Below are positions 17,484 to 34,835 of a stretch of 50,545 nucleotides of DNA, one piece after another. Under the pieces are notes generated by a model. The model searched no databases and was not told the origin of the DNA. It saw nothing but the letters and a program-made list of their open reading frames with translations. The stretch lies in the IMG/VR virus record IMGVR_UViG_2617270947_000016; one strand, given 5' to 3'. The number at the start of each line of letters is the position of its first letter. The first letter of the stretch is position 1. The stretch is from a virus (taxonomy: Duplodnaviria > Heunggongvirae > Uroviricota > Caudoviricetes). A program made the translations under genes and the position numbers.

Positions 17484-17512
17484 AAAAAAGACACGGGGGC
17501 ATTTCGCCCCCG
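17484..17512 (-). terminator. Terminator-like hairpin immediately downstream of major capsid gene
   Basis: 7 bp GC stem (CGGGGGC/GCCCCCG) followed within 4 nt by T6 on minus strand. Confidence 0.4.
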
Positions 17513-17520
17513 CTCACGGA

Positions 17521-18549: not shown

Positions 18550-18606
18550 AAATCAGTTCCTTTCATTAAGAAATCAGTCAGGCCAACGCGGTGGCCTGAT
18601 AACGTG

Positions 18607-18954
18607 TTACGGCAGCGCCGCGTGACTCAGGGCACTGCCGGTAAAGGCGTTGGCCTTTTTGTGTTCATCCACACTTTCAGGCCAGCGGATTGCCTCCGTC
18701 GCAAAGGTCCCCGACTTGTAATACGTCAGCACCGCCTCTGTGCCTTCAAGCGGCAGTACCAGTATGCCAACCGCACTACCGGCTTTCTGTCCGTCCCAGA
18801 CCACCAGTTTCCCGGTGGCCCCATCCAGCATCAGGGGTGTCAGTGCCGGTGTTGCCGAGGAAATCCCGCTGCTGCCTGTGGCGGTGTGAGCCGGATCATT
18901 ACCGGCAAAAATACGTACTTCCGCACGCTGTTCAGTGATGGTTTTCGTCACCAT
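18607..18954 (-). CDS. D: Head decoration protein D
   Basis: 115 aa; DPAHTAT...TPLMLD...KSGTF matches lambda D. Confidence 0.9.
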   Translation of the reverse strand: MVTKTITEQRAEVRIFAGNDPAHTATGSSGISSATPALTPLMLDGATGKLVVWDGQKAGSAVGILVLPLEGTEAVLTYYKSGTFATEAIRWPESVDEHKKANAFTGSALSHAALP

Positions 18955-18990
18955 ATTGTTAAAACCTCGTATTGATGTTCAGCACTGACT

Positions 18991-20496
18991 TCATGGCATG
19001 GCCATGAGCATTTTCACGTCCGCATCACCGTCTTCTGACGCCTGTGACACGCCCCCCTGGACCGCAGCCGGTGAATGGTTCGCCATGAAATGTTCAAACA
19101 GGGCGGTTGTGGATGCAGAGACCGGTTCTGCCTTACCTGATCCCGCAGCCAGCACAGCCCGGGCGCTCTCCACGGTCATTCCCGGGCAGGCAGCCAGCTG
19201 TTCAGCCTGCGCCTCAGCCCCTTTTGCCTCATCCAGTGCCATGATCTGATCACGGAGTGATGGTCCGGCATTCGTCTGCGGTGAAGCAGCCAGGATCGGG
19301 CGGGCTTTTTCCACCGTCATCTCCGGCATCGCCGCCAGCGTTACTGCCAGTTGTTCACGACCGTTCGCTTCTTCACACGCCATAATGCGATCGGCTTCAC
19401 TCTGCGCGGATGCCACCGGCTGCTGCGGTGCCACCGCGGCCAGAATCGCCCGGGCCTGTTCAACGCTCATGCCCTGTTGCCCAGCCAGCATCGTGGCAAG
19501 CTGTTCACGTCCTTTCGCTTCCTGGCATGTCAGGATCCCCATCACTCGCTGGTTCTCCTGCACGGCGGCTTCCGTTGCAGTTAATTGCGGCATAGTGCCT
19601 CCTCTGACATTACTGTTCAGCGCCGTGGCCATCACACTGATGGCATCCGACGCATTGATTAATTCATCCGCCAGCCCGGCCTCAATGCCGGACTGACCTT
19701 CAAAAACGGCGGCCTCTGTTCCCGTGACCGCATCCACAGACAACCCGGTATACATCGCCACTTTTTCGGCAAACATCCGGTGCGCCGCATCAATCCGCTG
19801 CTGCATATCCTGGCGAACCTCTGCCGGCAACGCTTCAAACTGATTGCCATCCACCTTGTGCGCCCCGGCATAAATCAGCGTGATATCCACCCCGGCCTGC
19901 GCCAGATGACCGGCATAGCTGACATGGCTCATCATCACGCCAATGGAGCCGATACGGGATGTCTGGGTAACCAGCCGTCGGGAGCAGGCCGACGCCAGCA
20001 GCATGGCTGCAGAACAGGCCGTGTCATTGCACAGTGCCCAGACCGGCTTCTGCTGACGGAGGCGGTAAATCATGTCAGCGCAGTCAAACGCGCCGGCGGC
20101 CTGCCCGCCCGGACTGTCAATGTCCAGCAGTATGCCCCGCACCTGGCTATCTGCCATTGCCTGCTGAAGACAGGCGACAATGCCGTCATAGCCAGTCATT
20201 CCGGAAAATGGCCGCATCCCCCCCAGCCGGTGCACCAGCGTGCCGCTCACCGGCAGTACCGCAATACCGTTCACCACCCGGTAAACACGGGCCGGTCGTT
20301 TACCTCCGGCCATGTACTCGTCCGTTTCAGCCAGCATTCCGGGAGCATCAAGCTGTACCTGCTGTTGTGGTACCGAAAGACTTGCTGCCCCCATCTCGCG
20401 CCCGAGCGCGCAAAAGAAAACCCGCGCATAGGCGGGCTCCAGAAGCAGCGGTTCATTGAATGCTGCGGCAATAATGTGTGAAAGATTACGTCTCAC
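18991..20496 (-). CDS. C: Capsid assembly protease C with nested scaffold (Nu3-like) C-terminal region
   Basis: 501 aa; AFNEPLLLEPAYARVFFCAL and S49-type protease core match lambda C; C-terminal motif present three times. Confidence 0.85.
   Translation of the reverse strand: MRRNLSHIIAAAFNEPLLLEPAYARVFFCALGREMGAASLSVPQQQVQLDAPGMLAETDEYMAGGKRPARVYRVVNGIAVLPVSGTLVHRLGGMRPFSGMTGYDGIVACLQQAMADSQVRGILLDIDSPGGQAAGAFDCADMIYRLRQQKPVWALCNDTACSAAMLLASACSRRLVTQTSRIGSIGVMMSHVSYAGHLAQAGVDITLIYAGAHKVDGNQFEALPAEVRQDMQQRIDAAHRMFAEKVAMYTGLSVDAVTGTEAAVFEGQSGIEAGLADELINASDAISVMATALNSNVRGGTMPQLTATEAAVQENQRVMGILTCQEAKGREQLATMLAGQQGMSVEQARAILAAVAPQQPVASAQSEADRIMACEEANGREQLAVTLAAMPEMTVEKARPILAASPQTNAGPSLRDQIMALDEAKGAEAQAEQLAACPGMTVESARAVLAAGSGKAEPVSASTTALFEHFMANHSPAAVQGGVSQASEDGDADVKMLMAMP
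19130..19560. repeat. Three degenerate tandem copies (~120 bp) of the C/Nu3 C-terminal motif
   Basis: Protein motif I-M-x-C-x-E-A-K-G-R-E-Q-L-A...M-T-V-E-x-A-R-x-I-L-A-A repeated three times; single copy in lambda C as recalled. Confidence 0.7.
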
Positions 20497-22078
20497 GTGG
20501 TGTTGTCTCCTCTTCCGGCCTGCGACTCTCCGCTATCTGCTGCTGATACGCCTGCGCTATCCACACCGGACGTGAGAGTCCGGCTTTTTCCCGCTCTGCA
20601 GATTCCCTGACCTGCTGGCGGAAAATGTCCTGATAATCCTCGCCCATCAGCGCCAGCTCTTTCTCATACGTGCTCAGTCCGGCCTCAATGCGCATCACTG
20701 ATTCCTGAACCTCCTTGAGCCCGTCAATGGCCATTCTTCCGGCTCCAATCCACTCAGCCCGTGACCAGGCTGATCGCGCCTGATAAAAATCAAAACGTGC
20801 CCGTGGCGGACGAATAATCCCCCGAAGAAGTGCCTCTTCCAGCCAGCAGGAAAACATCTGCGTGGCCAGTCGGGCCGCAATAAATTTTCGCCGCCCCATA
20901 AAATAGCGCCACGACTCATTGGCGGAGGCGCGGGCACTTGAGTAACTGACCTTCGAGTAATCACGGGACAACTGTTCGTAGGAAACGCCAAGACCGGCGG
21001 CGATATACCGCAGCAGCGCCTGTTCAAGCGCCGAAAATCCATTGTCTGAATCCTGCGCTGTCTGCAGTTTCAGATCATCACCAGGGAAAAGGTGCGGAAT
21101 TTTGACACCGCCCAGCGTCACGTGATTCGTGTCATACCAGCTGGAGAACTTCTCCAGAATATTAATAAGCGGATTATCCTTCTGCCCCTGCGGCGCACCG
21201 GCGATATATTCAAAGGCCTTTTCGGTATCCAGTTCACTTTCAATCGTCGCTGCATACATCGCCTTCACTATGGCCGACTGAAGCTGTGTTGCCTGCAGGG
21301 AATCGAGCATCTTCAGCCGTTCCATGACGCTGTAAAACTGATTGGCCCCACGGGTCTGCCCGTCCTCCACCGGCTCGAAAATATGCAGCATGGCCGGACG
21401 CCCGGTGGGTAGTTCACGCGGGATCCGTTCCCATCGTCCACTCCCGGAGCGAGGAAAATCATCCTCACAGATATGGTACGCAACGGCACGGCCATATCGA
21501 TCAACCTCCACACCGGCCCGCAGAAAACGGTTCCCGATACCGCGTCCTGGCGTGTCCACCCGTTTCGGACTCACGGCTTTAAAACGCGTACGGAATAACT
21601 GCGTGGTTTCCGTATCCCAGACCGGCTGCACAAAGATTTCGCCGTTAAACGCATGAACGCCCACACCTTCACGGATAAATTCCGTGAAGGTGCGTTTTCC
21701 TTCCACGTCGATCTCGCCAAACATCCCTTCGGCGTATTCCGACCAGGCCGCCTCCACCTCATCGACAAAGCTTTTTGCTGCGCTCTCCCGCATCCCCAGC
21801 CAGCGCCAGTTCGGACGGTAGCTGATCAGAAACATATGCCCGACAATGTGATCCTTATGCAGAGCCACCGCATTAGCCGCTATTCCGTTATTGCGCACCA
21901 GATCATCTGCCCGGGCATTCCCCAGACGCAACGCGGGTAGCAGGGCCGCATCGGCACTCTGCGCCGGTGGCAACCACTCAGCCATTTGCCCGCCAAATCC
22001 TGCACCGCCCCCGTTGTAGCTGAGACTCTCACGAAGCGGAACGCCGTTCACATCAATCAGGACAGGCGTTCGTTTCAT
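20486..22078 (-). CDS. B: Portal protein B
   Basis: 530 aa; lambda B order and similarity. Confidence 0.93.
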   Translation of the reverse strand: MKRTPVLIDVNGVPLRESLSYNGGGAGFGGQMAEWLPPAQSADAALLPALRLGNARADDLVRNNGIAANAVALHKDHIVGHMFLISYRPNWRWLGMRESAAKSFVDEVEAAWSEYAEGMFGEIDVEGKRTFTEFIREGVGVHAFNGEIFVQPVWDTETTQLFRTRFKAVSPKRVDTPGRGIGNRFLRAGVEVDRYGRAVAYHICEDDFPRSGSGRWERIPRELPTGRPAMLHIFEPVEDGQTRGANQFYSVMERLKMLDSLQATQLQSAIVKAMYAATIESELDTEKAFEYIAGAPQGQKDNPLINILEKFSSWYDTNHVTLGGVKIPHLFPGDDLKLQTAQDSDNGFSALEQALLRYIAAGLGVSYEQLSRDYSKVSYSSARASANESWRYFMGRRKFIAARLATQMFSCWLEEALLRGIIRPPRARFDFYQARSAWSRAEWIGAGRMAIDGLKEVQESVMRIEAGLSTYEKELALMGEDYQDIFRQQVRESAEREKAGLSRPVWIAQAYQQQIAESRRPEEETTPRET

Positions 22079-22281
22079 AACCTCACTCCCAGCGGACGAC
22101 GGCGACGCCGGGTTGTCCCCAGTACCGACTCCGCATCATTGATCGCCCGGTTAAGCTCATCCAGAGAAGCCGCCGTATATTCAATTCTGCGACCATCTTT
22201 CTGGACAGACACCACCCGTTTACCGGTTAATAAATCAAGGCGCGCCTGACGCAGCGCCTGCAGTTCAGCGACTGTAACCAT
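22075..22281 (-). CDS. W: Head-tail connector protein W
   Basis: 68 aa; LTGKRVVSVQKDGRRIEYTAAS matches lambda W. Confidence 0.9.
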   Translation of the reverse strand: MVTVAELQALRQARLDLLTGKRVVSVQKDGRRIEYTAASLDELNRAINDAESVLGTTRRRRRPLGVRL

Positions 22282-24193
22282 TCACTCCTCCGGACAGCTT
22301 CGCTGCCAGTTCTTTAAGGGTTGGCCGGGTCGTCTCTTCTTCCCGGGATTTTGCCAGTACAGCCAGATCAAGCTGCCAGCGTTGCACGGACACACGTAAT
22401 GCCGCGTAGGCATACACCAGGCAGTCCAGCGCTTCGTTACGCCGCTTTTTGTTATCCCACAGCAGACGCATCTTTCCTTTTTCCCACTTCTCCACAAGCT
22501 CTTCCGCGACCAGTTGCTGCGCCTCTGTCTGCGAAAAAATCTCCGGATCATCAGGAAAACGGATGGCATACGACGTGGCTTCATCCACAGGCGTGGGATC
22601 GGCTTTCATACGGGCATAGAGAATTTCTTTTGCGGTGTCCGTCCCCACTTCACACAGATACACGCCCCGCTGATTGCGGGTTTTCGGCATGGTGATCACC
22701 GGCTTGCCATAGACAGATGCGCCTTTTACCGGCAGCACCCGGAAAACACCGTGTTTTTTTGACCTCTGATAAACGATTTCGCCATCGATCCCCCCGGTGT
22801 CCCAGCAGACACGGGAAATAGTCATTTCGGTTCCGTCTGCATGGCGGTATTTTTTGTTGATCGCCGCATCCACACGTAACAGCGTCTCTTCCTCATCGGG
22901 ACGCCCCATAATGATGATTTTATCCACCAGAAAGGCTTCCTCTCCCGGAGCCCATCCCCAGACATACATCTCAAAACGGTTTCGCTGCGAGTCAATGCCC
23001 GCCGTCAGATAAACCACCCGGGCAGGCACCGCCGCCGTGTAACGCACAACCTTATCCATCAGTACCTGGTGATCGAGTTTTTCGCCCACAGCCTCTTCCC
23101 AGGTCTCGCCCAGCGTGGTGTTCACAAAGGTTTTCAGGCCGTTGGGATCTTTCAGTGCATCCAGCCAGTCATAGACAATCTGTACCCAGGTGGTGAACGG
23201 ACTGTACGCCGTCCAGATATGGAAAGTGATGGAGCGCGGCGGCGGAATTTCATCACCCCGGGCGCTGAAAAACATCAGGCCGTCACGGGTCCACATGCCC
23301 GTGTTTTCACAGATCCACCGCCCGTTACTCTGGTCAAGCTCAGACTGATGGATCACACAGCCATGATGCTCACAAAGGTAGAAAACACTTTCTGGCTTAT
23401 TCTTCTCCCACTTAAGACCGAAAGGCGAGGCATCATCGCCAAATTTCAGATACTGCTCCTCCCCACAGTGCGGACAGGGCACATAAAAACGCATGAAGTG
23501 TGCCGACTCGTTAGCGGCTTTTTCGATCTGGCAGGTGCCTTTGATTTTAGGCGTCGAGCCGCGAATGGATTTGGGCCATACAGAGCCCTCAATACGTTTA
23601 TCCCCAAGCAGGGTTGGCGAACCCTCTTTTTCGACATCCGGTTCGAACGAGGAAAGTTCGTCATAGCAGACCACGTCCACGGATTTTTCACGGTAGTTTT
23701 TAGCGGCAGCCCCGCCCAGGCACCAGAAGCCCACGCCCGATGAAAAACGTTTCAGCGTGAGGGTATTATCACGATGTTTACGCCCAAACCACGGTGCAAG
23801 ATCGAGTAAAACCGGCACATCCCTGATCGTGGGTTCCACATGAGATTTCATAAAATCTTCAGCAGCAGAATCCGTGGGCTGGAAAAGAAGGCTGTTGCGT
23901 GATTTATGCTCAATAAAATAAGCCTCCACTCCCAGCAACATCTTTGTATAACCAACACGGGCAGATTTAATCAGATTAACAGTGCGGATCCGGTCATTCC
24001 CCATGCTGTTCATGATGGCAACCTGAAACGGCAGTGTTTCCCACCGCCCCGGGGTGTAAGATGACTCTTTCGGAAGGTAATAATGTCGATCTGCCCACTG
24101 AACTGTCGTCAGAGGGACAGGAATTTTTAGCGCAAGGAGGCCGGTTGCTATCGCTCCTGCAGAATTAGCCGCCCTCAGTTCGTCTGAAATCAT
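22265..24193 (-). CDS. A: Terminase large subunit A
   Basis: Blocks [33 protein letters not shown] match lambda A; start chosen at MISDELR (RBS AGGTGG), overlapping Nu1 by ~29 nt as in lambda. Confidence 0.93.
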
Positions 24194-24713
24194 CAATCCA
24201 CCTGCGCACATTCTCACCGGCTTCAGAAGCCACATCGGATGCTTTCGCGATTTCAGTTTTCACAGCATCAAGATGTACGGGTGATATATCAGGGTATTTA
24301 CGCTGCAGTGTCTGAGGGACACGGACAAGGATCCCTGATATATTCTGTGCCACTCGCTGAAAGATGTAGGTAAATAACTCCGTCTCGAGGACAAGGCCTT
24401 CCTCACGAGCATTTTTCAGCTCCTGTGCATCGGCCTGTGCCTTCGTCAGTCGGTAACGTTCGTAATCAATGGTGCCGGGCTGAAGGTCTGATTCGCTGGC
24501 AGCCCTCAAATCCTCGATCTCTTTACGGAGTTTTTCGTTTTCAATATCAGCTTCCCTCTGCGCATACCACTGAATGGCAGCAGTTGTATCAAAAACTGAT
24601 TCAGTCCCTTTCCCTCCACCAGAAACTAGTGGTAACCCCTGACTCTGCCAGGCGGTGATGGTCCTGACATCAACGCCAAAAATATCGGCCAGTTTTTTCT
24701 TATTGACGTTCAT
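24165..24713 (-). CDS. nu1: Terminase small subunit Nu1
   Basis: 182 aa; [19 protein letters not shown]...IENEKLR matches lambda Nu1. Confidence 0.92.
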
Positions 24714-24882
24714 ACACTCCCCCGGGAACCAGAAAGGATCTGAAAATGGCGTTTTCTAACAAAAACAGCCTTTGTCAGATCCTTTTATATTTTTAAAATT
24801 CTATTGATAATCAATCAGTTAAAAAGAAGAAGAACGGATCTGATTTTTCCCTAAAAATTTTCATAAATAGCGAAAACCCGCG
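24714..24882 (-). promoter_or_regulatory. cosB-equivalent terminase binding region between cosN and Nu1
   Basis: Position relative to cosN and Nu1 and strong similarity to lambda left-end sequence. Confidence 0.5.
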
Positions 24883-24894
24883 AGGTCGCCGCCC
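24883..24894 (-). other. cosN cohesive-end sequence (minus strand GGGCGGCGACCT)
   Basis: Reverse complement of 24871-24894 reads GGGCGGCGACCTCGCGGGTTTTCG, identical to the lambda left end as recalled. Confidence 0.85.
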
Positions 24895-25100
24895 CGTAAC
24901 CGGTCGGATCGCCGGAAAGGACCCAAGAAATGATAATGATTATCATCTATATAAGGTTTATCACAACATGTGTGTACGCCATCAAACCACGAGAAATAAT
25001 CAATTATGACGCAGGTATCGTATTAATTGATCTGCGTCAAATTAACGTAAAAGCAACTTCAGATAATACAAATCAGCAACACTGAATATGGGGAAACATT

Positions 25101-25286
25101 ATGTCATCAAAGAACAGAACCCGCAGAACAACAACCCGCAACATCCGATTTCCAAACCAGATGATTGAACAAATTAACATCGCTCTTGATCTGAAAGGTT
25201 CAGGAAACTTTTCAGCGTGGGTTATTGAAGCCTGCAGAAGAAGGCTGTCAACAGAGAGTTCGGGTATGAATTACATAATTAAGTAA
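25101..25286 (+). CDS. Hypothetical protein, homologue of the ORF at the right end of the lambda genome
   Basis: 61 aa; KNRTRRTTTRNIRFPNQMIEQINIAL...GSGNFSAWVIEACRRRL resembles the cos-proximal lambda ORF. Confidence 0.5.
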   Translation: MSSKNRTRRTTTRNIRFPNQMIEQINIALDLKGSGNFSAWVIEACRRRLSTESSGMNYIIK

Positions 25287-25909
25287 CATGGTGTTCACAG
25301 AACACGCAGTTACCGGACACATCAGTTTTCCATTCGCTCACCGGCAGTACAGGCTTCCCCTCTGACGGGATAGCCTGAAAAAATAACACAGAAAATTATT
25401 TGTTATAATTAATATAACTTACTCAAAAAAAAGCGACGAGAAAATCAGCATCAACGAACAATAAGCGCCAATACGTGATAACAAATGGCAGCCATATTTA
25501 TCTGCAGTATAAGCAATGGACAGGATAACCACACCAGAAACCGTCAGCATAAAATCCATTTGAACTTCCCCGGACAAAATCGACTCATCTAAAGATTTAC
25601 AGCTCTTTTTATTATCAATATGTTAAAAGTAAAATAAACAGATGTTCAATAACACGAATACAAAAACGTGCTGAAATTCAATGAATCCATTTCTGTGTCA
25701 TCAATTAATAGTGATAAACATCCGGCTTCTTCCACCATCGCACCGGACAGGCGACTATGAGGGGACAACGCCGCGCTCCGTTAACGCGGTAAACCCCGGT
25801 GTGTATCGTTTTTGATTATCCCCGCACACTCGCGCAGAGGAGTCTCCCTGCCGGGCTGCGGTCTCTGTTAATGAGGGAATACAGCGACGATACGGCGCAT
25901 CAACAAAAC

Positions 25910-26383
25910 TTATTTCAGGCACTGAGTGCGGATATAGTCCTGTGCCCCTTCCAGTTGCTTGTGCATCGTCATCAGCCGCTCTCTGAGGGTGAAATAATCC
26001 CGTGTAACGGTGTCTGCCAGTTGGGGGCCGGTTGCATTATCCACGCCGGAGGTGGTGGGGGCTTCACGCACGGAGCCTGGACAGGTGGCGTTGATCCGCA
26101 GGCGCTTACGACCAGCGGCAACATCAGCGCGCAGAGTTTCATTTTCAGCTCTCGCATCGGATAATTCCCTCGAGTATTTTGCATCGAGCGCAGCAACATC
26201 GCGCTGGCGCACCTGCATATCAGTAATGGTTGCGTTCGCCAGCTTCAGTTCACTGGCTTTGTTATCGCGCTGCGCTTTGTAGGTAATCGCGTTATCACGG
26301 TAATGGTCTGTTGCCATCCACAGCGCACCACAGGCCACCAGCAGAATAACGATAAACGCGGAAAGCATTCGGTTTATGTTCAC
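25910..26383 (-). CDS. Rz: Spanin inner-membrane subunit Rz
   Basis: 157 aa; [14 protein letters not shown]...DYFTLRERL matches lambda Rz. Confidence 0.88.
25972..26157 (-). CDS. Rz1: Spanin outer-membrane lipoprotein Rz1, embedded in +1 frame of Rz
   Basis: Lipoprotein signal ...[10 protein letters not shown] and proline-rich [14 protein letters not shown] matches lambda Rz1. Confidence 0.7.
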
Positions 26384-26511
26384 CCCAGCAACCCCGACGA
26401 AGACAACATCATCCAGGCCATGGAAAGAAAAAGAGCAACCAGCATTAGTGAAAATGAAATGCCGACAATTACACAGAGGATCTTCGCCAGCGTTATGAGT
26501 TTGTCTGACAT
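26380..26511 (-). CDS. Hypothetical 43 aa single-TM peptide, translationally coupled to Rz
   Basis: Strong RBS GGGAGG 7 nt upstream of ATG; stop overlaps Rz start (ATGA); hydrophobic core. Confidence 0.4.
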
Positions 26512-26525
26512 GCTTAATCCTCCCT

Positions 26526-26708
26526 TCACGATTTCAACGCAATGACCAGTTTTGCCAGCCCATACAGCATCGGGGACACAGCAACACCGACCGCCACCCA
26601 CTTAATGGCAAAAGCCAGTGCTCTGCTGATGTCATCAGTTACAGGCGCTTTCAGTTCAAGGCCATTTTTCATAGTCAACCTCAACAGAATTCGTTTATAC
26701 TTCGCCAT
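26526..26708 (-). CDS. Hypothetical 60 aa protein with basic N-terminus and C-terminal TM segment
   Basis: RBS AAGGGAGA before ATG at 26708; sits between endolysin terminator and Rz. Confidence 0.4.
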
Positions 26709-26740
26709 GTTCTCCCTTGCCTTACTCAAGGTCAGAAACA

Positions 26741-26775
26741 CAAAACCCCGCTTGGTGCCAACAAACGGGGTTTTT
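26741..26775. terminator. Hairpin with U-tracts on both strands downstream of endolysin
   Basis: CCCCG...CGGGG stem flanked by A-run and T-run. Confidence 0.4.
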
Positions 26776-26864
26776 ACTTTTATTCACTTACGTTTCGCCA
26801 GTTCGCAGGATTTCGTGTTATCCGCCCGCGTGGCCATACCTTATTTTTCAGCAAAATATTCTGC

Positions 26865-27398
26865 TTATCTGTCGATTCCCCAGCACGCCAGCGCGCTCTC
26901 CTGGTCACGACGGGATACCTGACCATAACAGTTATTTGAGCGGATACGGCAGTCTCTGCCACCGTCCTTAATCCACCAGCGAATCGCCTCACACGCTCCC
27001 CTGCGATCACCTGCATTAATTCGTTTATAAAACGTCGACGGAAAACACTTACCGGGGCCAATGTTGTACGGACAGAATGACGCGATCCCCGCTTTCTGGG
27101 GTTCACTCAATGGCACTCTGATGTTTTTCTCCACCCATGCCAGCGCCTTATCACGCTCAATGGCGTTAACCCGGTCGCATTTTTCCTTCGACAACTTCAT
27201 GCCCGGAACGACAGGTTTGCCATCCACCAGGATGGCACCGCGGCAGATGGTCCAGATACCCGCGCCATCACGGTATGCCGTGGTGTGGTTACCTTCCTTT
27301 TCATCCAGAAACTGGTCGAGAATGTCAGGCGCAGGCGCACCAGCGGCAATCAGCGCCAGAACGGCAGCCGACAGGCCGTATTTGATTTTGGTGTTCAT
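26865..27398 (-). CDS. R: SAR endolysin (lysozyme, phage 21 R-like)
   Basis: 177 aa; Gly/Ala-rich N-terminal signal-anchor-release segment; catalytic region with E...D...T spacing resembling R21. Confidence 0.85.
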   Translation of the reverse strand: MNTKIKYGLSAAVLALIAAGAPAPDILDQFLDEKEGNHTTAYRDGAGIWTICRGAILVDGKPVVPGMKLSKEKCDRVNAIERDKALAWVEKNIRVPLSEPQKAGIASFCPYNIGPGKCFPSTFYKRINAGDRRGACEAIRWWIKDGGRDCRIRSNNCYGQVSRRDQESALACWGIDR

Positions 27399-27523
27399 GG
27401 ATATTTATCAGGATTTATCGGTTCCGAATCCCTGGATATGTTAAGTCTTCAGCCCGCCAGTGGTGGGCACTGGCGTAAACTCAACAATGCGAGATGGCTG
27501 CCTCGCAAAGATAAGGAACAGAT

Positions 27524-27799
27524 ATGAGTGAAGAAAATAGCAAAGAGAATACAGCACTTTTTGACAGAATTTTTACTCTTGAGTTACAGGTCGGTTTTCT
27601 TCTCCCAAAGATAATCAAAGCAATGGATGCACTAAGTAAAAATAACGCTGTGTCAGATTACCTGATCGCCGAAATGGAACATCTAATTAAAGAAATACCA
27701 AAGACAGTTGCTCGTGATGATAAAAGATTCCTCAAGGCTGCTGAAGATGCTCTTTCAACAGTGAAGCGCAGCTTAGATGCGCCGCGCGATCAAGAATAG
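27524..27799 (+). CDS. Hypothetical protein on the strand opposite the lysis genes
   Basis: 91 aa ORF in visibly AT-rich DNA; RBS AAGGA; fills gap between R and upstream ORF; terminator downstream. Confidence 0.4.
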   Translation: MSEENSKENTALFDRIFTLELQVGFLLPKIIKAMDALSKNNAVSDYLIAEMEHLIKEIPKTVARDDKRFLKAAEDALSTVKRSLDAPRDQE

Positions 27800-28262
27800 T
27801 TTCTTTCATTTCATCTGCTGCAAGCACCTCATTTTTTGTTGGGGTGCTTTTTTTCAATTCAGCGATATAGCACTCCAGTTTTTCAATGCGTGATTCAATA
27901 TCATCGTTTTCTGACCGCAATGCCGTCGGTGGCGTCTTCAGAGAACCAGTAATTATTCCCGGTAGTTTTCCTCTGTAGGTTATCAACACATCCTGCGCCT
28001 CTAAAATTACGGGGCGCTTTTCCGGCAACGGACCATCCCCTTCACATAACCCGGCAGCAACATCCATGAAAAACTGCTTCGCCTGCTTTTTCGCCTCAGC
28101 TTCGTAAAACTCCAGCGTGGCATCTTCAGTACGGTCAAGACTAATCGCCACATCTGGCAACAACAGTGACGGATACCCACCAATTTCCAGTGCCACAGTA
28201 ACAGTAATCTTATCCGGGTAATTATTTATCCCTTTAACAACCAGTTCGTATTTTTTCTTCAT
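27732..28262 (-). CDS. Hypothetical protein inserted between holin and endolysin
   Basis: 176 aa ORF starting 5 nt after holin stop with RBS GGGGAGAG; no family recognised. Confidence 0.5.
   Translation of the reverse strand: MKKKYELVVKGINNYPDKITVTVALEIGGYPSLLLPDVAISLDRTEDATLEFYEAEAKKQAKQFFMDVAAGLCEGDGPLPEKRPVILEAQDVLITYRGKLPGIITGSLKTPPTALRSENDDIESRIEKLECYIAELKKSTPTKNEVLAADEMKETILDRAAHLSCASLLKEHLQQP
27823..27854 (+). terminator. Candidate intrinsic terminator for the plus-strand ORF
   Basis: AGCACC...GGTGCT stem followed by TTTTTT. Confidence 0.35.
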
Positions 28263-28266
28263 CGCT

Positions 28267-28482
28267 TTACTCTCCCCGCGCCGCCTTACGCCGGTCCTCT
28301 CTGATTTTGAAATACAGGTTAGTCAGATATGTCAGCAGCCCAAACAGCAGACTCCCCAGCACGCCTATTGCCGCCCACTGAGACGGGGAAACCCTGTCCA
28401 GCAACTGCAGGAACCAGTAGCCCGTTCCCACCGCTGACGTGGTGTATGACACACCTGTTGTGATTTTTTCCATCTGGTACAT
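28267..28482 (-). CDS. S: Class II holin (pinholin, phage 21 S-like) with dual-start motif
   Basis: C-terminal [46 protein letters not shown] matches S21-type holins; starts MYQMEK (two Met); ORF-track N-terminal extension not used. Confidence 0.85.
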
Positions 28483-28632
28483 ACCCCGTCTCCCGTTATC
28501 CGGAAGCTGACAACAATAAAAAAAGCCACCAGTTAAGTACTGATGGCTCTGATAACTCATGCAGGCATCTCAGACGACCCACTGACACTACCGGTGAGTT
28601 TAACGATACCTTCCATTTGGCTGGCTCACTTT

Positions 28633-30486
28633 TTATGATGATGCCGGTGCATTTATCTCCAGCACCAGACTTTCTATCTCAACGCCATACGTTGCATTTT
28701 TGGTAATATCCGTCAGCGTCAGTGCATTTAGTCCCACTGTCAGACTGTCTTTTATGACCTGGAATGCCGGGCCAGCCACTCCATTCAGTTTCGGAGTAAC
28801 CGTGGCACTGCCGGCGGTGAACACCAGCTCCAGCGTCTGCCAGTCGTTACTGTAATTCCCGAACTCGCCCAACTTTGTGTTTCCGGCTTTCTTGTGATGC
28901 ATCAGATTCAGTTTGCCGTCTGTGGTCTGGGTGAAGAACGACATCAGGAACGGGTTACCAGTCCCGGTCATCGCCACGACGTCAGGTAACGCTACATCGG
29001 TATACAGATAAATTCCCAGACCGAACTGGTTGTTGGTCAGTGCGCCTGACAGTCGAAACTTACAGCTCAGTCTGCCACCCCGTGTCAGCAGGGAGACTGC
29101 GTCATCCACCGGGCGCGTCAGGGACCAGGCTTTATTGCTCTGCTTGGTGATCTTAAATACACCATCTGACAACTGAATTCCGCCATTCTTAATGCTCCAG
29201 CCCTGCGCAGCAGCATCTCCGGCTGTCGGCAACAGGGAGATTGTGCGTACGGATGCATCTTCAGACGGCCCCGATGGCGTGTCGCCGCCGGGCGAGGGTT
29301 TGATTTCCGGTGCCTTACCACTGATGAAGGCTGAGGTGCGCCCGGCTGCGTTCAGAATAGCGGTTGCCATACGATCCGGAATAATGCTCCTGCGCGCCCA
29401 TGAACTGAAATGTGTCGGGCGGTTTGATGATACCTGGTTTCCATTCGTTCTCGATGCCGCACCGTAATATCCTGATGCCGGAATATCCGGATCTTCTGCC
29501 GGTGCGTTAGTGGCGGTATTGACGCCGTTACCGTCTGTCATGAAGGGCACAAAATAAACGCCCTCACTCTCCCTGTTTTTATACCCTCCGTACACGGTGT
29601 CGTACTGGGTAGCGTATGTATTTTTCCAGTAATACGTCGTGTCACCACAAATCCACGGTACAACTGCAGCACTGCCGCCATGGCACTGCGCGTTAAATCC
29701 GGAAAGGTCAGTACGGAACTGCTTCAGCATGGCCGTGAACAGGTCCGGTTGCTGTGCGTAGGTGGCAGCGCTCATGTCAAATTCGCCCTGCATCCAGCAC
29801 ACCGCCAGCAACACATTTTTCGGGTTCTTCTGTAATGCAGCTTTAGTGCGCGCAATCAGGTCCTGATATAGCGGTTTACCCACACCCCAGCGTGCCGAAT
29901 CCTGGCTGGCCCCCGCGTCCGCACTGAATGTCCCCTCCGCGCCCTGGGTGAATGCCGAACCACCACGACAGCATGGTACCAGCAGGATCCCCGCGTTATT
30001 CGGGATATACGGGAGCAGTTTTTTGGCAATATGTAAGCCCTGGCCGACACAGCCGTACTGCCCTTTGCTCAGGTCTGCCTTCGGATGATTCAGCGTACTC
30101 ATATCCTGCACATCATGCAGACAGTGGTCAGCCGGGATGATGTCGTTATACGTACAACTCTCTCCACCCGGAGTTACCGTGCTGCGGCGCGCCAGCTGTT
30201 TAATGCGCGGATCCGGAGCATCGTAAGAATCCGGTAACGGAAGCCCTTCACCGTAGGCCATGCCGTTGGACTGTCCGGCAAGCACAACCACGTAGAACCA
30301 GTCCGGCTCAGATGAAGGGCCGACCTGTGGATCTCCTTCAATAGCCACCGCCTGCATCAGTGTGTACGGCGTAATGGCAACCGGTCCGCCATATGGCTGC
30401 CAGCCCTCTTTCAGTTTGTGTGTCAGCTTTTCCGCAAGGTCTGACGGCGACGCCGCCCTGACAACATCATAGTGTTTAAATGCCAT
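28633..30486 (-). CDS. nanS: Prophage sialate O-acetylesterase (NanS-p-like; DUF1737 N-terminus plus SGNH/SASA esterase domain)
   Basis: 617 aa; MAFKHYDVVRAAS... N-terminus and VVLAGQSNG esterase motif; located between tRNA cluster and holin as in Stx-type prophages. Confidence 0.8.
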   Translation of the reverse strand: MAFKHYDVVRAASPSDLAEKLTHKLKEGWQPYGGPVAITPYTLMQAVAIEGDPQVGPSSEPDWFYVVVLAGQSNGMAYGEGLPLPDSYDAPDPRIKQLARRSTVTPGGESCTYNDIIPADHCLHDVQDMSTLNHPKADLSKGQYGCVGQGLHIAKKLLPYIPNNAGILLVPCCRGGSAFTQGAEGTFSADAGASQDSARWGVGKPLYQDLIARTKAALQKNPKNVLLAVCWMQGEFDMSAATYAQQPDLFTAMLKQFRTDLSGFNAQCHGGSAAVVPWICGDTTYYWKNTYATQYDTVYGGYKNRESEGVYFVPFMTDGNGVNTATNAPAEDPDIPASGYYGAASRTNGNQVSSNRPTHFSSWARRSIIPDRMATAILNAAGRTSAFISGKAPEIKPSPGGDTPSGPSEDASVRTISLLPTAGDAAAQGWSIKNGGIQLSDGVFKITKQSNKAWSLTRPVDDAVSLLTRGGRLSCKFRLSGALTNNQFGLGIYLYTDVALPDVVAMTGTGNPFLMSFFTQTTDGKLNLMHHKKAGNTKLGEFGNYSNDWQTLELVFTAGSATVTPKLNGVAGPAFQVIKDSLTVGLNALTLTDITKNATYGVEIESLVLEINAPASS

Positions 30487-30680
30487 GAATCCTCCCGGCC
30501 GGGATAATATTGTGAGTAAAATGAGGAGCGGGCTGAAGTCCGGAAGTTACAGGACAATGGCAGAAGAGAGACAATAGCCCGCAATACGAAAAAGGCCGCG
30601 CTATTGCGCAGAGTGATTACTGTCGGATATTATTCGCCAGCTGAAATATTACTTCACGTTTTGTTGTTTATTCCTTGCCG

Positions 30681-30708
30681 CCCGCGTCTCCCTGCGCGGG
30701 ATTTTTTT
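30681..30708 (+). terminator. Hairpin plus T7 tract (plus strand) in the tRNA-nanS spacer
   Basis: CCCGCG-N8-CGCGGG followed by ATTTTTTT. Confidence 0.4.
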
Positions 30709-30720
30709 GTCCATAAGAAA

Positions 30721-30738
30721 GCCCCTCCGGAGAGGGGC
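30721..30738. other. Perfect 7 bp hairpin GCCCCTC-CGGA-GAGGGGC
   Basis: Direct sequence inspection; U-rich tract follows on minus strand. Confidence 0.4.
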
Positions 30739-30935
30739 TGGAGAGTGGCGCTATGTGCCATTGCATGGTGCCGGGTGCCTCCCGGTGAATTCAGTACCAG
30801 CACCTGAATCCGCGATTATCCCATATACCTACTCGCTGATTGCCCCTCCGCACAGGGGGATTCACCATGCCAGTTTCTTTTAACAAACTCCCCGCAAAAC
30901 AGACAACTGTCAACCGTCTGAATTGTGAGACATTT

Positions 30936-30961
30936 AAAAAAAAGGCCCGCAAAAGCGAGCC
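30936..30961 (-). terminator. Rho-independent terminator downstream of tRNA cluster
   Basis: GGCTCGC-TTTT-GCGGGCC hairpin followed by T8 on minus strand. Confidence 0.55.
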
Positions 30962-30975
30962 AGGGAAAATAAGTG

Positions 30976-31052
30976 TGGCGCGTTGTACTGGATTCGAACC
31001 AGTGACCGATTGCTTAGAAGGCAATTGCTCTGTCCGGCTGAGCTAACAACGC
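30976..31052 (-). tRNA. tRNA-Arg (anticodon UCU)
   Basis: 77 nt cloverleaf: acceptor GCGTTGT/ACAACGC, anticodon loop CTTCTAA, T-loop TTCGAAT, 3' CCA. Confidence 0.85.
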
Positions 31053-31065
31053 AGGGTACAGATAA

Positions 31066-31142
31066 TGGACCGCCATCGAGGACTCGAACCCCGCGCAACC
31101 AGCTTCGAAGGCTGGCGCTCTATCCTGATGAGCTAATGGCGG
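31066..31142 (-). tRNA. tRNA-Arg (anticodon UCG)
   Basis: 77 nt: acceptor CCGCCAT/ATGGCGG, anticodon stem CCAGC/GCTGG with loop CTTCGAA, T-loop TTCGAGT, 3' CCA. Confidence 0.75.
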
Positions 31143-31149
31143 TATGTGA

Positions 31150-31225
31150 TGGTGGCCCTTGCTGGATTTGAACCAGCGACCTGGCGATTATGAGTCGCTC
31201 GCTCTCACCACTGAGCTAAAGGGCC
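31150..31225 (-). tRNA. tRNA with CAU anticodon, ileX-like (tRNA-Ile2 / Met)
   Basis: 76 nt: GGCCCTTTAGCTCAGTGGT...CTCATAA...GGTTCAAATCC...CCA; resembles E. coli ileX. Confidence 0.8.
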
Positions 31226-31274
31226 GCGCGCAGAATAATAACGTTACGGAATTAATACTGCAATCTCATCCGTT

Positions 31275-32324
31275 TCAAACGATTAAATCCTGAACTTCCC
31301 TGACTGTCTGCTCAAAACGTCCGGTCTCCAGCTCAACACCAATCGCACGACGCCCCAGTGCCATCGCCGCTTTTACCGTTGAACCCGACCCCATGAAAAA
31401 ATCCGCAACCAGATCACCAGGACGACTACTTGCGCTGATTATCTGCTGCAGCATTTCTGCCGGTTTTTCGCACGGATGTTTCCCTGGATAGTACTGCACC
31501 GGTTTATACGTCCACACATCGGTGTACGGCACCTGCACCGTCACACCGAAATACCGCCGCAAATTTTTATATTCACTCAGCAGTTCCATATACTGCCGGT
31601 TCAGCTCACTGTATGTGCTGACCAGCTGGTGGTGTGGCTTTTCCAGTTCCCCGCGCTGATGTTTCTCTTCTGCCACCCGGGCAAACAGCGACTGTAATTT
31701 CAGATAATCGCTTTCGTTCGGTAGCTGCCACTGACTGGCACTGAACCAGTGCGGCACCATGTTTTTCTTTCCTGTGGCATCTGCAATCTGTTTTGCCGTT
31801 ATCCCCAGGGCAGCGCGCGCATCACGAAAGTAAGCAATCAGCGGGGCCATCACATGCTGTTTCAGTGCCCTGCCCTTCGCCTCATACCCGGCATCTTTCG
31901 GACGATACGGCCCCTGATAATGTTCCGCGAACAGAATGCGCTCTGTGGCGGGGAAATACGCCCGCAGGCTTTCCTTGTTGCATCCGTTCCAGCGTCCGGA
32001 CGGCTTCGCCCAGATAATATGGTTCAGCACACTGAAGCGTTCACGCATCATGATTTCGATATCAGATGCCAGGCGATGACCACAGAACAGGTAAAGACTT
32101 CCGGCAGGTTTCAGCCCCCGCCAGAACTGCGCCAGACACTGGTCCAGCCACTTCAGGTAATCATCGTCGCCCTTCCACTGGTTATCCCAGCCCTCAGGCT
32201 TCACTTTAAAGTACGGCGGGTCCGTGACTATCAGGTCAACAGAATTTTCGGGTAACGACCGGATAAATTCCAGGCAGTCGGCGTTGATTAACTCACAACT
32301 GGATATTTTTACAGTATTAGCCAT
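31275..32324 (-). CDS. DNA methyltransferase, beta-class (DPPY then FxGxG), probable N6-adenine specificity
   Basis: 349 aa; VTDPPYF catalytic motif followed by C-terminal FFMGSGST SAM-binding motif. Confidence 0.8.
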   Translation of the reverse strand: MANTVKISSCELINADCLEFIRSLPENSVDLIVTDPPYFKVKPEGWDNQWKGDDDYLKWLDQCLAQFWRGLKPAGSLYLFCGHRLASDIEIMMRERFSVLNHIIWAKPSGRWNGCNKESLRAYFPATERILFAEHYQGPYRPKDAGYEAKGRALKQHVMAPLIAYFRDARAALGITAKQIADATGKKNMVPHWFSASQWQLPNESDYLKLQSLFARVAEEKHQRGELEKPHHQLVSTYSELNRQYMELLSEYKNLRRYFGVTVQVPYTDVWTYKPVQYYPGKHPCEKPAEMLQQIISASSRPGDLVADFFMGSGSTVKAAMALGRRAIGVELETGRFEQTVREVQDLIV

Positions 32325-32464
32325 AGATCAATAAGCACTTCTCTGATAGGCTCATACCGCTTTTGCGCAAAGCAGATGGGCCTGAGGTTTGCTTGTGACC
32401 CCAACGCATGAGCAGATGGCTGGTGGGTGCCCCTAACACCCACCAGCCGCCCATTTACCACAAA

Positions 32465-32489
32465 TAAAAAAGCCTTCACTGCGGAAGGC
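32465..32489 (-). terminator. Rho-independent terminator at end of wHTH gene
   Basis: GCCTTC-N7-GAAGGC hairpin followed by T6 on minus strand. Confidence 0.5.
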
Positions 32490-32673
32490 GTCTGTAACAA
32501 CCGAACTGATAGTCTGCCAGACCCGCCATAACCAGCTGGGTCAGTATTAACTGGCAGCGTTCGCGTGAAAGGTAAGTATTCTGCGCTATCTCCCCGACTG
32601 TCGCCGGTTCGGTAACGCTTAATTCATTAAACACCACTCTGGCGGTTTCTGTCATATCCTGCTGTTTTAGCAT
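32476..32673 (-). CDS. Small winged-helix protein, PapI/FaeA-like
   Basis: 65 aa; pattern ...TVGEIAQNTYLSRERCQLILTQLVMAGL... resembles PapI/FaeA winged-helix regulators. Confidence 0.4.
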   Translation of the reverse strand: MLKQQDMTETARVVFNELSVTEPATVGEIAQNTYLSRERCQLILTQLVMAGLADYQFGCYRRLPQ

Positions 32674-32791
32674 GCCTTTTCCCTTTTCTGGTTAACGTGA
32701 CATACCAATAACTCTTGTCGAAAAAGCCAGCAAGCTGAAAGACCGATATTAATAACTACCAGCGCGTTTAATGTACCGCACTTCGGGCATC

Positions 32792-32814
32792 AAAAAACCC
32801 GCTCAATGGCGGGG
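32792..32814 (-). terminator. Rho-independent terminator after membrane-protein cassette
   Basis: CCCGC-N6-GCGGG hairpin followed by T6 on minus strand. Confidence 0.5.
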
Positions 32815-32835
32815 TTAATTAATGAGGTAACAACC

Positions 32836-33633
32836 TTAACTTGTTTGATTCTGTACTTCAGTGGCCTTCTTCCCTTCAATACCTGCCTTGAAAGTCTCGA
32901 ATGTTTCAACATTAAACAGCGAAAAAGATTCGATCTGATCGAAGGGCAACACATGCCTAAACTGATAAACTGACAATGGCTCAGAAGTTAATGTGATACC
33001 CTGACTAAGGTAGTAGTCCACATAATTATGCTCAACACAAAAAGTCAGAGTATCTTTATCTCTGTACCCGGACATAAAAGGGATTAGCACCAATGTGTTA
33101 GTATCTAACTGATTGAAACGTGCCTCATCAATCATCCCCACATAGACCTTGCGAGACTTCAGTGTAACCAACAATAACAATCCACGCTCAACTGATTCAA
33201 GAAGGATATTTTCCACGGCACTATGAGCCGCAATTTCTTCAAAAATAGCCTTGCGCTTTTGTGGGTCTTTATGGTTTTTGGTTGCCTCTGATGCCTTCCC
33301 GATACTTACAATAATAGTGAAAGCTATCGACATAGCAGGGAACATGCTCAACCCAAACACTCGCATTTTGAGAAAGTCATGGGCGAAAGTAAAGGGAGCG
33401 TACCAACCAAACAAGTACGCTGGAATGTTCCAAAGTGACATTCCAGCGTACAGAACAACAACCAATAAGGCAGCGATAAGAATACCACTTATGAGAAACT
33501 CACCACCTTTCAGTGCAACATCAAAGTATGCATTCCAACCGATCGCTTTGCTTTGACGGTATCGTGACGGCAAATGGCAGTTGGTATAGTGATAACCACA
33601 AACTAAAACAATAACAATCAGCGCAGCCCACAT
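32836..33633 (-). CDS. Hypothetical integral membrane protein (three N-terminal TM helices, ~150 aa soluble C-terminal domain)
   Basis: 265 aa ORF in visibly AT-rich DNA; start 6 nt after stop of upstream small gene. Confidence 0.6.
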   Translation of the reverse strand: MWAALIVIVLVCGYHYTNCHLPSRYRQSKAIGWNAYFDVALKGGEFLISGILIAALLVVVLYAGMSLWNIPAYLFGWYAPFTFAHDFLKMRVFGLSMFPAMSIAFTIIVSIGKASEATKNHKDPQKRKAIFEEIAAHSAVENILLESVERGLLLLVTLKSRKVYVGMIDEARFNQLDTNTLVLIPFMSGYRDKDTLTFCVEHNYVDYYLSQGITLTSEPLSVYQFRHVLPFDQIESFSLFNVETFETFKAGIEGKKATEVQNQTS

Positions 33634-33639
33634 AGAAGA

Positions 33640-33867
33640 CTAACCCTTCTTCTTAGTACTCAATCCCTTAATATTGGCTGCGAAAGCCTTTTGCACATCA
33701 GCGTTGTTGCGATTCAAAACCATCGAACCATTACTATCAATGAAAAACTTGTCACTTTCATGCTTAGCTTCTTTTCCATCACACATGGAAGCTATATCTG
33801 CAATTTTTTTGATGATCTTCTCAGGTGAGAGGATCGCGCGAGCGGCAAGTGTTAGATATTTCGGCAT
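33640..33867 (-). CDS. Hypothetical small basic protein (75 aa), first gene of two-gene cassette
   Basis: Internal start MPKYLTLAARAIL with strong RBS GGAGGGGAG; the ORF-track N-terminal extension is hydrophobic read-through. Confidence 0.55.
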   Translation of the reverse strand: MPKYLTLAARAILSPEKIIKKIADIASMCDGKEAKHESDKFFIDSNGSMVLNRNNADVQKAFAANIKGLSTKKKG

Positions 33868-34044
33868 GCTCCCCTCCGTTAACAGATAAAACACAAAAAG
33901 CACACAAACAAAGTATGCGCACATCCTAACCTATGTGGCTAACAACCACTTTCTTTTATAAGATGAGTGTATTACCTAAAGGGTAACTCGGCAATAGCAG
34001 AATAGTTTTAGCAAGGTAAAATCGATGGTCTTTCGCTCAACTTA

Positions 34045-34075
34045 CGACAAAAGATAGCCCGCTCAGCAGCAGGCT
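34045..34075 (-). terminator. Terminator-like hairpin downstream of Q-like gene (tR'-position candidate)
   Basis: AGCCTG...CGGGCT stem followed by TCTTTTGT on minus strand. Confidence 0.3.
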
Positions 34076-34139
34076 TTGTTTAGTTTGCCATCGTGTACAA
34101 AATCAGCAAAATATCAGATTTACACGAAATGTACGCGAT

Positions 34140-34835
34140 TTAATTGACTTTTGCAATAACCCGCCGCGAAAAGGTCGCTTTTTGTTGCGATCTTGTTTTC
34201 ATGGTATAAATCAAAGATTCGTTGTCGAGGTTCTTAAAAATGTCGCACATATCACGCCAGTAGTGCGCATAATTGTGGCTCCAGTTGTCTGACTTAACTC
34301 CACACAGTCTGGCAAGTTCCTGTCGCTGGTAGACGTCACACCCAGTAATCCTCCCCCTGACATCCTGCGCCGCCAGCCAGATTAATTTCTTCAGACGCTC
34401 AAGCGTTTTCCCTGTAATTTTTCTGGTGCCAAAATGCACCTGAAACTTATCCCACGCCCATTTCGCAATGACCACCTGATAATCCCAACTCGGATTTTCA
34501 CTGTATACCCACAGTACCCACGCCTTCTGATGCTCTTCAAGAGACAGAACGGCGCGTCGCCATGATGATGTCGAAAACTCAACCGGACTGACTAGGGCAA
34601 TTGATGAACCTTTCGCCAGCGATTGCTTTCCCGGGATCGGTGGATTATCCAGCGTTACCATTTTTCCAGTGACCTTATCGCGGTACCGGATTTTTTTACG
34701 TCTGTAACGCCCTGTATCAAACATGGCATTCTCCTGCCAGGCTTCAAGCTGACCTTTTGTTGCCCCACTCAAATCGGCGGTGGCGATAATGAGTTGCTCA
34801 CGAACAAACTGTAAATACTGGTTATTCATGCGCAC
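34140..34835 (-). CDS. Putative late-gene antiterminator, Q-like (assignment by position)
   Basis: 231 aa ORF directly downstream of rusA and upstream of the late region, the Q position; no lambda Q similarity or zinc finger seen. Confidence 0.4.
   Translation of the reverse strand: MRMNNQYLQFVREQLIIATADLSGATKGQLEAWQENAMFDTGRYRRKKIRYRDKVTGKMVTLDNPPIPGKQSLAKGSSIALVSPVEFSTSSWRRAVLSLEEHQKAWVLWVYSENPSWDYQVVIAKWAWDKFQVHFGTRKITGKTLERLKKLIWLAAQDVRGRITGCDVYQRQELARLCGVKSDNWSHNYAHYWRDMCDIFKNLDNESLIYTMKTRSQQKATFSRRVIAKVN

Follow-up and report, generated by a model that had tools for sequence, protein, structure and literature searches.

Which genes occupy the place between tRNA genes and nanS-p at which Shiga toxin (Stx) phages carry stxAB, if no toxin gene is found there? 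The question is raised by positions 30487-30975 of a 50,545-nt stretch of viral DNA (Caudoviricetes; IMG/VR record IMGVR_UViG_2617270947_000016), which in its full length is called the window in the following. A preliminary description of this spacer had read the order of tRNAs, about 490 bp, nanS-p and lysis genes as an Stx-phage backbone, had found no stx open reading frame (ORF), and had considered the slot empty, i.e., filled only by hairpins. The gene order is borne out by ARAGORN and Pfam, and the spacer measures exactly 489 bp between the tRNA and ORF ends. It is not empty, however. About 380 of the 489 bp belong to two convergent small RNA (sRNA) genes, namely a full STnc100 at 30709-30899 (-) and an antisense sRNA homologue at ~30527-30708 (+), and Stx phages keep such genes too, downstream of stxB. 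The element is thus very probably an stx-negative lambdoid prophage that has the late module of an Stx phage and a toxin-free moron site with two convergent sRNA genes. The 489-bp stretch corresponds to the 'moron site' known from downstream of Q/pR', in a state without toxin genes.

Two convergent sRNA genes in the spacer

The sense strand of the late region (minus strand of the window) encodes an STnc100-family sRNA, EcOnc05 allele, at 30709..30899. The respective Rfam match (RF02076) reaches 139.2 bits (gathering threshold 47; E = 2e-31) and spans the full model (positions 1-206) with few broken pairs. The locus folds with z = -2.53, and the EcOnc05 northern probe (AATCCGCGATTATCCCATATACCTACTCGCTGATT) matches window 30807-30841 in 35/35 bases. 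In the lambdoid late region, the gene is found upstream of nanS-p and, where there is an stxB, downstream of the latter; this place is the same in the Sakai prophages Sp4, Sp5 and Sp15, in the Oslovirus Stx2a phage LC645409 and in a variant with iraM and DUF3927. By score, coverage and synteny, the gene is a member of the STnc100 family. In Sakai, EcOnc05 shows a sense-strand Hfq cross-linking peak at Sp4 and a northern signal of ~222 nt (Tree et al., PMC4104026), so by analogy with such near-identical loci the sense RNA of the window would be a discrete Hfq-bound transcript. STnc100 has also been described as EcOnc27, directly downstream of stx2B; it was detected in outer-membrane vesicles of two Escherichia coli strains that produce Shiga toxin (STEC strains), and its overexpression in EDL933 affects fimZ and espA transcripts (PMC12711010, PMC12370729).

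A promoter-like element lies at 30877..30906 (-), composed of the -35 hexamer TTGTCT (30906-30901), an 18-nt spacer and the extended -10 TGTTAAAAG (30885-30877). It is conserved in the alignment of the window, Sp4, Sp5, LC645409, Sp15 and PasD2 of enteropathogenic E. coli (EPEC). The RNA-seq 5' end of PasD2 (741157) maps to the homologous G of GCATGGTGAATCC, which is window position 30870. Given the promoter alignment and this 5' end, we predict a promoter with its +1 near 30870 and a primary sense transcript of roughly 160 nt, probably from 30870 to ~30709. A second, longer sense form of ~222 nt may start near 30930.

We also considered whether the sense RNA is a PasD. With the STnc100 of the window, PasD2 (EPEC prophage PP2) has in common the promoter-like block as well as the initial ~40 nt (GCAUGGUGAAUCC...), but it differs in its 3' half. 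It scores 41.4 bits on the STnc100 model, i.e., below threshold, compared to 139.2 bits for the window, and the similarity between window and PasD covers only 62 aligned nt with 76% identity. The assignment was rejected. Sharing of no more than promoter block and ~40 nt agrees with the common ancestor of PasD and STnc100 proposed in the Zhu/Shabalina/Storz preprint.

In many genomes, the RefSeq annotation (PGAP) places a partial pseudogene ('hypothetical protein') at window 30755-30880 (+), antisense to STnc100. This coding sequence (CDS) is probably an annotation artefact over the sRNA gene.

The second gene, at ~30527..30708 (+), encodes a convergent antisense sRNA of EcOnc08/EcOnc21 type, identified by homology to EPEC PP6 and Sakai Sp4. 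PP6 is 97.9% identical to the window over 30855-30380, the entire antisense sRNA included (Sp4: 98.5%). The EPEC equivalent of 30527-30708 is 'E2348C_1409.E2348C_1408.IGR' (NC_011601 1444797-1444978), reported as a new accessory-genome sRNA with the homologues EcOnc08/21/42 in enterohaemorrhagic E. coli (Pearl Mizrahi et al., PMC8550237). Among its partners in RIL-seq are the 5' untranslated regions (5'UTRs) of cfa (767 chimeras) and dppA (197) as well as tir, and its targets have the motif GGCAAGG in common (PMC8550237). The complementary seed CCUUGCC is found in the window at 30673-30679, just before the terminator at 30681-30700. Judged by sequence, seed and terminator, the RNA belongs to the group formed by EcOnc08/21/42 and the EPEC sRNA, and the EPEC partners suggest that it pairs with cfa, dppA and tir via Hfq. 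In Sakai, EcOnc08/EcOnc21 give opposite-strand Hfq peaks at Sp4 and RNAs of ~271 nt on northern blots; convergent Hfq-bound sRNA pairs at the moron site 3' of pR' were described for Sp3, 4, 5, 9, 10, 11, 15 and 17 (Tree et al., PMC4104026).

No Rfam family matches the antisense region 30527-30708, and neither AsxR (RF02703) nor AgvB (RF02702) is matched at E <= 10 within 30480-30980. Membership of the plus-strand RNA in the AsxR/AgvB/EcOnc03 group, defined by an above-threshold match to the conserved ~42-nt 3' domain (GUAUCUCAUGC...GCCCGAACCCAYUCGGGC), was rejected on sequence, as the 3' domain differs in the alignment. With regard to place and convergent orientation, AsxR in Sp5 equals the antisense RNA of the window and likewise abuts the 3' end of the sense sRNA. 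The consensus scan also reports a promoter-like site at 30480..30508 (+), ATGCCA-17 nt-GATAAT, which extends over the start codon of nanS-p and does not vary among six aligned loci; it could drive the antisense sRNA.

Next, we turn to the hairpins at 30681-30738 and 30936-30961, which the preliminary description had located correctly. Within 30300-31400, the consensus scan reports 5 terminator-like sites (30739-30720 is scored twice) compared to 1.0 +/- 1.0 in shuffled sequences. The hairpins noted earlier belong to the tRNA cluster and the two sRNAs as their terminators. The intrinsic terminator of the tRNA cluster is found at 30936..30961 (-) (stem 30961-30944; GGCTCGC-TTTT-GCGGGCC then T8) and is kept in Sp5 and the Oslovirus Stx2a phage, immediately ahead of the stx2 cassette. 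The sense-sRNA terminator at 30710..30739 (-), AGCCCCTC-TCCG-GAGGGGCT then TTCTTATGGA, has its hairpin at 30739-30720, which is the 3' hairpin of the Rfam STnc100 structure. The antisense terminator consists of a hairpin at 30681-30700 (+) and a T7 run at 30702-30708, such that the convergent RNAs end on neighbouring bases (30709 on the minus and 30708 on the plus strand). A third terminator-like hairpin of the sense strand, CTGCGCAATAGCGCGG then CCTTTTTCG, is located in the nanS-p leader at 30596..30611 (-) and is conserved in Sp5 and LC645409.

The toxin position in Stx phages and its toxin-free counterpart

First, we assessed whether any part of a toxin cassette is present. A tblastn search of Stx1A/B and Stx2A/B against the whole window yields nothing significant (best E = 0.11). 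With the stx2 cassette and the stx1 region as queries, sensitive blastn (word size 7) gives no match at the slot or in its vicinity; the lowest E-value (0.002) belongs to 20414-20450, i.e., about 10 kb away. No remnant of the cassette is found in the window, be it from the stx promoter region, from the coding sequence or from the 41-bp trailer of stx2B. With regard to Stx-converting phages, the element has their late-region backbone and lacks stxA and stxB.

The backbone was assessed by aligning the window with Stx1 and Stx2 prophage late regions, as the preliminary description had proposed. The compared backbones are related, and no deletion scar is seen. On the tRNA side, window 31240-30935 is 94% identical to both Sp5 and LC645409 (sensitive blastn). 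From 30932 onward, the window aligns with the post-cassette sequence at 72% (Sp5) and 86% (LC645409), which gives the range of 72-86% for STnc100. On the nanS-p side, identity to these Stx2a phages is 86-91%, with 91% for the nanS-p leader in Sp5. In total, 387 phage records match the region and ~220 of them are Stx-converting by organism name (Stx2a 124, Stx1a 47, Stx2 25, Stx2c 17, and smaller groups). Among the phage matches listed, many exceed the length of the query by ~1.33 kb. There are also phages without stx in which the slot is uninterrupted, e.g., vB_EcoP_phi296, phi315, phi367 and TL-2011a.

The blastn junctions place the stx2AB cassette of Stx2a phages at window 30932..30935. Here, window positions 30935/30932 correspond to 5057/6390 of the compared Sp5 stretch and 2517/3850 of the LC645409 stretch. 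The cassette comprises 1332 bp in both phages and consists of the stx2 promoter region, stx2A, stx2B and the 41-bp trailer. Side by side, the window reads ...GCGGGCCTTTTTTTTAAA|TGTCTCACAATTCAG... where Sp5 reads ...GCGGGCCTTTTTTAT[cassette]TGTGTCACAATTCAG... According to these alignments, the toxin position comprises not all 489 bp but a few bases, bordered by the tRNA terminator on one side and the upstream region of STnc100 on the other, and STnc100 is a constant resident downstream of it.

The order of tRNAs, terminator, STnc100, nanS-p and lysis genes is common to the window, Sp5 (933W-type) and the Oslovirus Stx2a phage. In Sp5, the full series is tRNAs, terminator, stx2A, stx2B, STnc100 (207.7 bits, starting 75 bp past stx2B), AsxR on the opposite strand (88.1 bits) and nanS-p, with AsxR where the window has the EcOnc08-type RNA. 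LC645409 shows the same order (STnc100 185.7 bits) but without an AsxR match. The Stx1 prophage Sp15 of Sakai is 87% identical over window 30870-30382, i.e., over STnc100 body, antisense sRNA and nanS-p leader. Its stx1AB genes directly follow Q with no tRNAs annotated there, and its right junction at window 30870 is ~60 nt further in than the stx2 junction.

The closest toxin-free counterpart is Sp4, an stx-negative lambdoid prophage of O157:H7 Sakai. Over window 31224-30380 (845 nt covering tRNAs, slot and nanS-p start), it is 98.5% identical without a gap. Sp4 has the same 489-bp spacer, the tRNAs ileZ1/argN1/argO1, ECs_1088, and the sRNA pair of the window (EcOnc05 sense, EcOnc08/21 antisense). 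The few point differences include one at the base of the antisense terminator. On the other hand, the surrounding modules are unlike those of the window, since Sp4 contains a different type of Q, a gene of the AraC family and copies of IS629.

Finally, we counted uninterrupted junctions by means of a 151-nt query (30860-31010) that has the junction in its middle, at >= 80% coverage. They are found in 1020/5426 complete E. coli genomes. We did not use the respective count for the whole spacer (973 genomes at >= 80% coverage), which cannot tell empty from stx-occupied sites because the junction is 42 nt from the query end and an interrupted site still leaves 91% coverage. Being present in about a fifth of the complete genomes, the uninterrupted, toxin-free arrangement is an ordinary one. 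Lambdoid prophages that lack stx and have such a late region have reportedly been known since the Sakai genome.

Proposed function and alternative explanations

In the proposed mechanism, the slot would hold, in order, the terminator of the tRNA cluster, the promoter-like element with STnc100, the convergent antisense sRNA, and the nanS-p leader with its hairpin. As long as the prophage is in the lysogenic state, the three terminators on the sense strand would stop transcription of tRNAs and sRNAs before it reaches nanS-p and the lysis genes. Each sRNA would be transcribed from a promoter of its own and would target host mRNAs in trans, together with Hfq. Once the prophage is induced, RNA polymerase modified by Q would arrive from upstream and pass all terminators, such that nanS-p and the lysis genes are expressed; readthrough of this kind into the late genes is the established late-gene logic of lambdoid phages. 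In relatives with toxin genes, these would be located at 30932-30935, within the few bases that separate the tRNA terminator from the STnc100 promoter.

Several observations weigh against this reading. Transcription, RNA ends and Hfq dependence in this strain are carried over from near-identical loci. For the sense sRNA, the position of the 5' end is uncertain, as the prediction of ~30870 (roughly 160 nt) faces the ~222 nt of the Sakai northern. Furthermore, the peaks of Tree et al. were placed on Sp4 assuming zero offset between NC_002695 versions, with the probe position as sole support. For the antisense RNA, the lengths disagree (182 nt in EPEC vs. ~271 nt in Sakai). It also folds no better than shuffled sequences (z = -0.44), and structure therefore lends it no independent support. 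Finally, window position 30701 (+) is A where Sp4, EPEC PP6, LC645409 and Sp15 have C, by which the antisense terminator loses one G-C closing pair at its stem base.

The best-surviving alternative, albeit an improbable one, is a vacated toxin site, i.e., a one-time Stx phage in which a deletion removed stxAB and left only terminators. Homology to Stx2a and Stx1 phages is indeed seen in either flank of the stx position. In addition, ATCTG is found at both ends of the stx2 cassette in Sp5, which makes a precise loss possible in principle, but a 5-bp repeat of this kind is expected by chance. The window holds no cassette remnant, its junction is that of the stx-negative Sp4 (98.5%) and of the 1020 genomes counted above, and the spacer consists mostly of sRNA genes rather than leftover terminators. 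Moreover, Q is of the 231-aa PF06323 type compared to the 435-bp Q gene of Sp5; the wider backbone therefore differs from that of the compared toxin phage. That the lineage never carried stx is not proven by these data. Still, they lend no support to a 'former toxin phage', which is the less economical reading because empty sites are abundant and diverse. From the preliminary wording 'stx-negative relative or former toxin phage', we thus keep the relative and, with neither scar nor cassette remnant, drop the former carriage.

Of slightly lower probability again is a purely cis-regulatory spacer, in which a stack of terminators insulates the lysis genes and the sRNA matches are unexpressed relics. 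The three sense-strand terminator-like hairpins ahead of nanS-p fit such a role, as do the missing excess in folding stability of the antisense RNA and the reliance on other loci for expression in this strain. Relics, however, would hardly have intact and conserved promoter-like elements, seed and both terminators, nor match the full Rfam model with few broken pairs. Loci of 98% identity furthermore yield abundant Hfq-bound RNAs in Sakai and EPEC. A small protein encoded in the spacer, for which one could cite the PGAP pseudo-CDS at window 30755-30880 (+) in many genomes and the ORFs of 49-77 aa on both strands, is hardly credible, given that this annotation is flagged as incomplete and pseudogene, that none of the five slot ORFs matches Pfam at E <= 0.1, that the stretch is antisense to a high-scoring structured RNA, and that Sakai has no CDS annotated there.

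The surrounding late region and cargo exchange

The toxin-free moron site with its two sRNA genes is part of a whole lambdoid prophage, which extends in the window from a DinI-like gene (515-763) to an integrase gene at the window edge (49259-50545). The AR_0372 prophage adjoining yecD is 97-99% identical and collinear with it except for the head/terminase block. Since this block (16921-25721) is not collinear in an otherwise near-identical relative, it is a swapped module.

On the minus strand, the late region is ordered as Q, methylase, tRNA(CAU), tRNA-Arg(UCG), tRNA-Arg(UCU), the 489-bp spacer (30487-30975), nanS-p, holin, DUF1327, lysozyme and Rz. The tRNA cluster of ileZ/argN/argO type at 30976..31225 (-), supported by ARAGORN and Rfam tRNA matches, comprises tRNA(CAU) (Ile/Met; 31150-31225), tRNA-Arg(UCG) (31066-31142) and tRNA-Arg(UCU) (30976-31052); the homologous genes in Sakai Sp4 and Sp5 are annotated as ileZ/argN/argO. 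The 617-aa ORF at 28633-30486 (-) is a sialate O-acetylesterase of nanS-p type by its domain architecture (Pfam: DUF1737 at the N-terminus, 1.2e-15; SASA esterase, 2.4e-12; DUF6645 at the C-terminus, 2.2e-19). Esterase activity is predicted, and homologues are annotated as SASA family carbohydrate esterase.

The lysis cassette at 25910..28482 (-) was delineated by Pfam and the annotation of the near-identical AR_0372 prophage. It contains a P21-type holin (28267-28482), a DUF1327/YdfR protein (27732-28262), a lysozyme (26865-27398) and Rz (25910-26383; PF03245, E = 7e-47), all on the minus strand. The DUF1327/YdfR ORF encodes 176 aa in the window compared to 114 aa in annotated relatives. Similarity to AR_0372 stops at 27927, within this gene, which therefore contains a mosaic joint. 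The 150-bp gap between the nanS-p stop (28633-28635) and the holin start (28482) harbours a strong terminator-like hairpin (AGCCATCAG...CTGGTGGCT then T7) at 28518-28549 (-; hand-counted coordinates), which could be the nanS-p terminator or the end of a 3'UTR-derived RNA. Other prophages have PasA/PasC at this place. Here, PasA/PasC was rejected, as the respective gap of EPEC PP2 is unlike window 28483-28632 and unlike the whole window.

The upstream late-regulatory block at 31275..34835 (-) was annotated with Pfam, the terminator scan, PHROGs and PADLOC. It starts with the Q antiterminator (231 aa, PF06323 type; 34140-34835) and ends with a DNA methyltransferase (31275-32324) just upstream of the tRNAs. 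The latter matches the Type II methyltransferase model of PADLOC with 548.8 bits; as PADLOC reports no restriction partner nearby, it is apparently an orphan phage methylase. The stretch from Q to the methylase also belongs to the moron region and contains three minus-strand ORFs (32836-33633, 33640-33867 and 32476-32673). They have no Pfam or PADLOC match and only hit PHROG families of unknown function, e.g., phrog_3630 for the 265-aa protein (E = 2e-59). Terminator-like sites downstream of Q at 34075-34056 and 33920-33900 could be tR'. The promoter pR' was not located; the consensus scan downstream of Q gave one weak site, inside the Q coding region.

Next, we compared the cargo found around the STnc100 core. 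The IraM/DUF3927 variant (e.g., NZ_OW968277.1, NZ_CP124322.1 and phage vB_EcoS-640R1) retains the core and its promoter (window 30940-30720) at 97% identity. On the tRNA-terminator side, it has instead 642 bp containing a DUF3927 ORF, joined at 30940/30941, and where the window has the antisense sRNA, a block of 630 bp encodes iraM on the opposite strand. This variant is common in E. coli (located at 2859-4351 of one compared stretch); iraM, an anti-adaptor that stabilises RpoS, lies exactly at the place of the antisense sRNA of other prophages. Phage vB_EcoS-640R1 has two STnc100-like copies plus iraM. In Sp5, AsxR replaces the last roughly 60 nt of the antisense region. In PP6 of EPEC E2348/69, ISEc13, an IS4-like insertion sequence (IS), is found inside STnc100 at window 30848-30855, where the flanking alignments overlap by 8 bp. 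It covers 2612-3985 of the compared stretch, and the adjoining antisense sRNA is still an abundant RIL-seq hub in EPEC.

As variants occur on both sides of STnc100, cargo is exchanged at two sub-sites flanking it. On one side, the joints are 30932-30935 (stx2AB), 30940/30941 (DUF3927 block), 30870 (stx1AB) and 30848-30855 (ISEc13); on the other, AsxR-type RNAs, the EcOnc08-type RNA or iraM are joined at 30719/30720. The earlier suggestion that the slot is a place of cargo exchange thus holds for stx, DUF3927, iraM, AsxR and IS variants, while the toxin site itself narrows down to the few bases at 30932-30935. Tentatively, and with more doubt than confidence, we consider the STnc100 module (30940-30720) a fixed landmark, both edges of which are prone to recombination, with the joints of the various cargo located a few bases from the limits of its promoter and terminator. 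Possible mechanisms of such a hot spot would be terminator hairpins that act as recombination substrates or the conserved sRNA sequence that provides homology arms. If the joints reflect a true mechanistic hot spot and not modular shuffling plus selection, the sRNA gene would be a landing pad deciding where the toxin enters.

All findings match published descriptions, i.e., they represent already known biology and nothing new; publications from 2014 and 2021 (PMC4104026, PMC8550237) describe the two convergent sRNAs of the moron site. Their importance beyond annotation is accordingly small. With regard to annotation, the 'empty' intergenic stretches of this module merit sRNA genes, where RefSeq has a spurious partial CDS instead. 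Furthermore, the stx site can be defined to a few bases, which aids the design of polymerase chain reaction (PCR) or read-mapping assays for the surveillance of toxin gain and loss.

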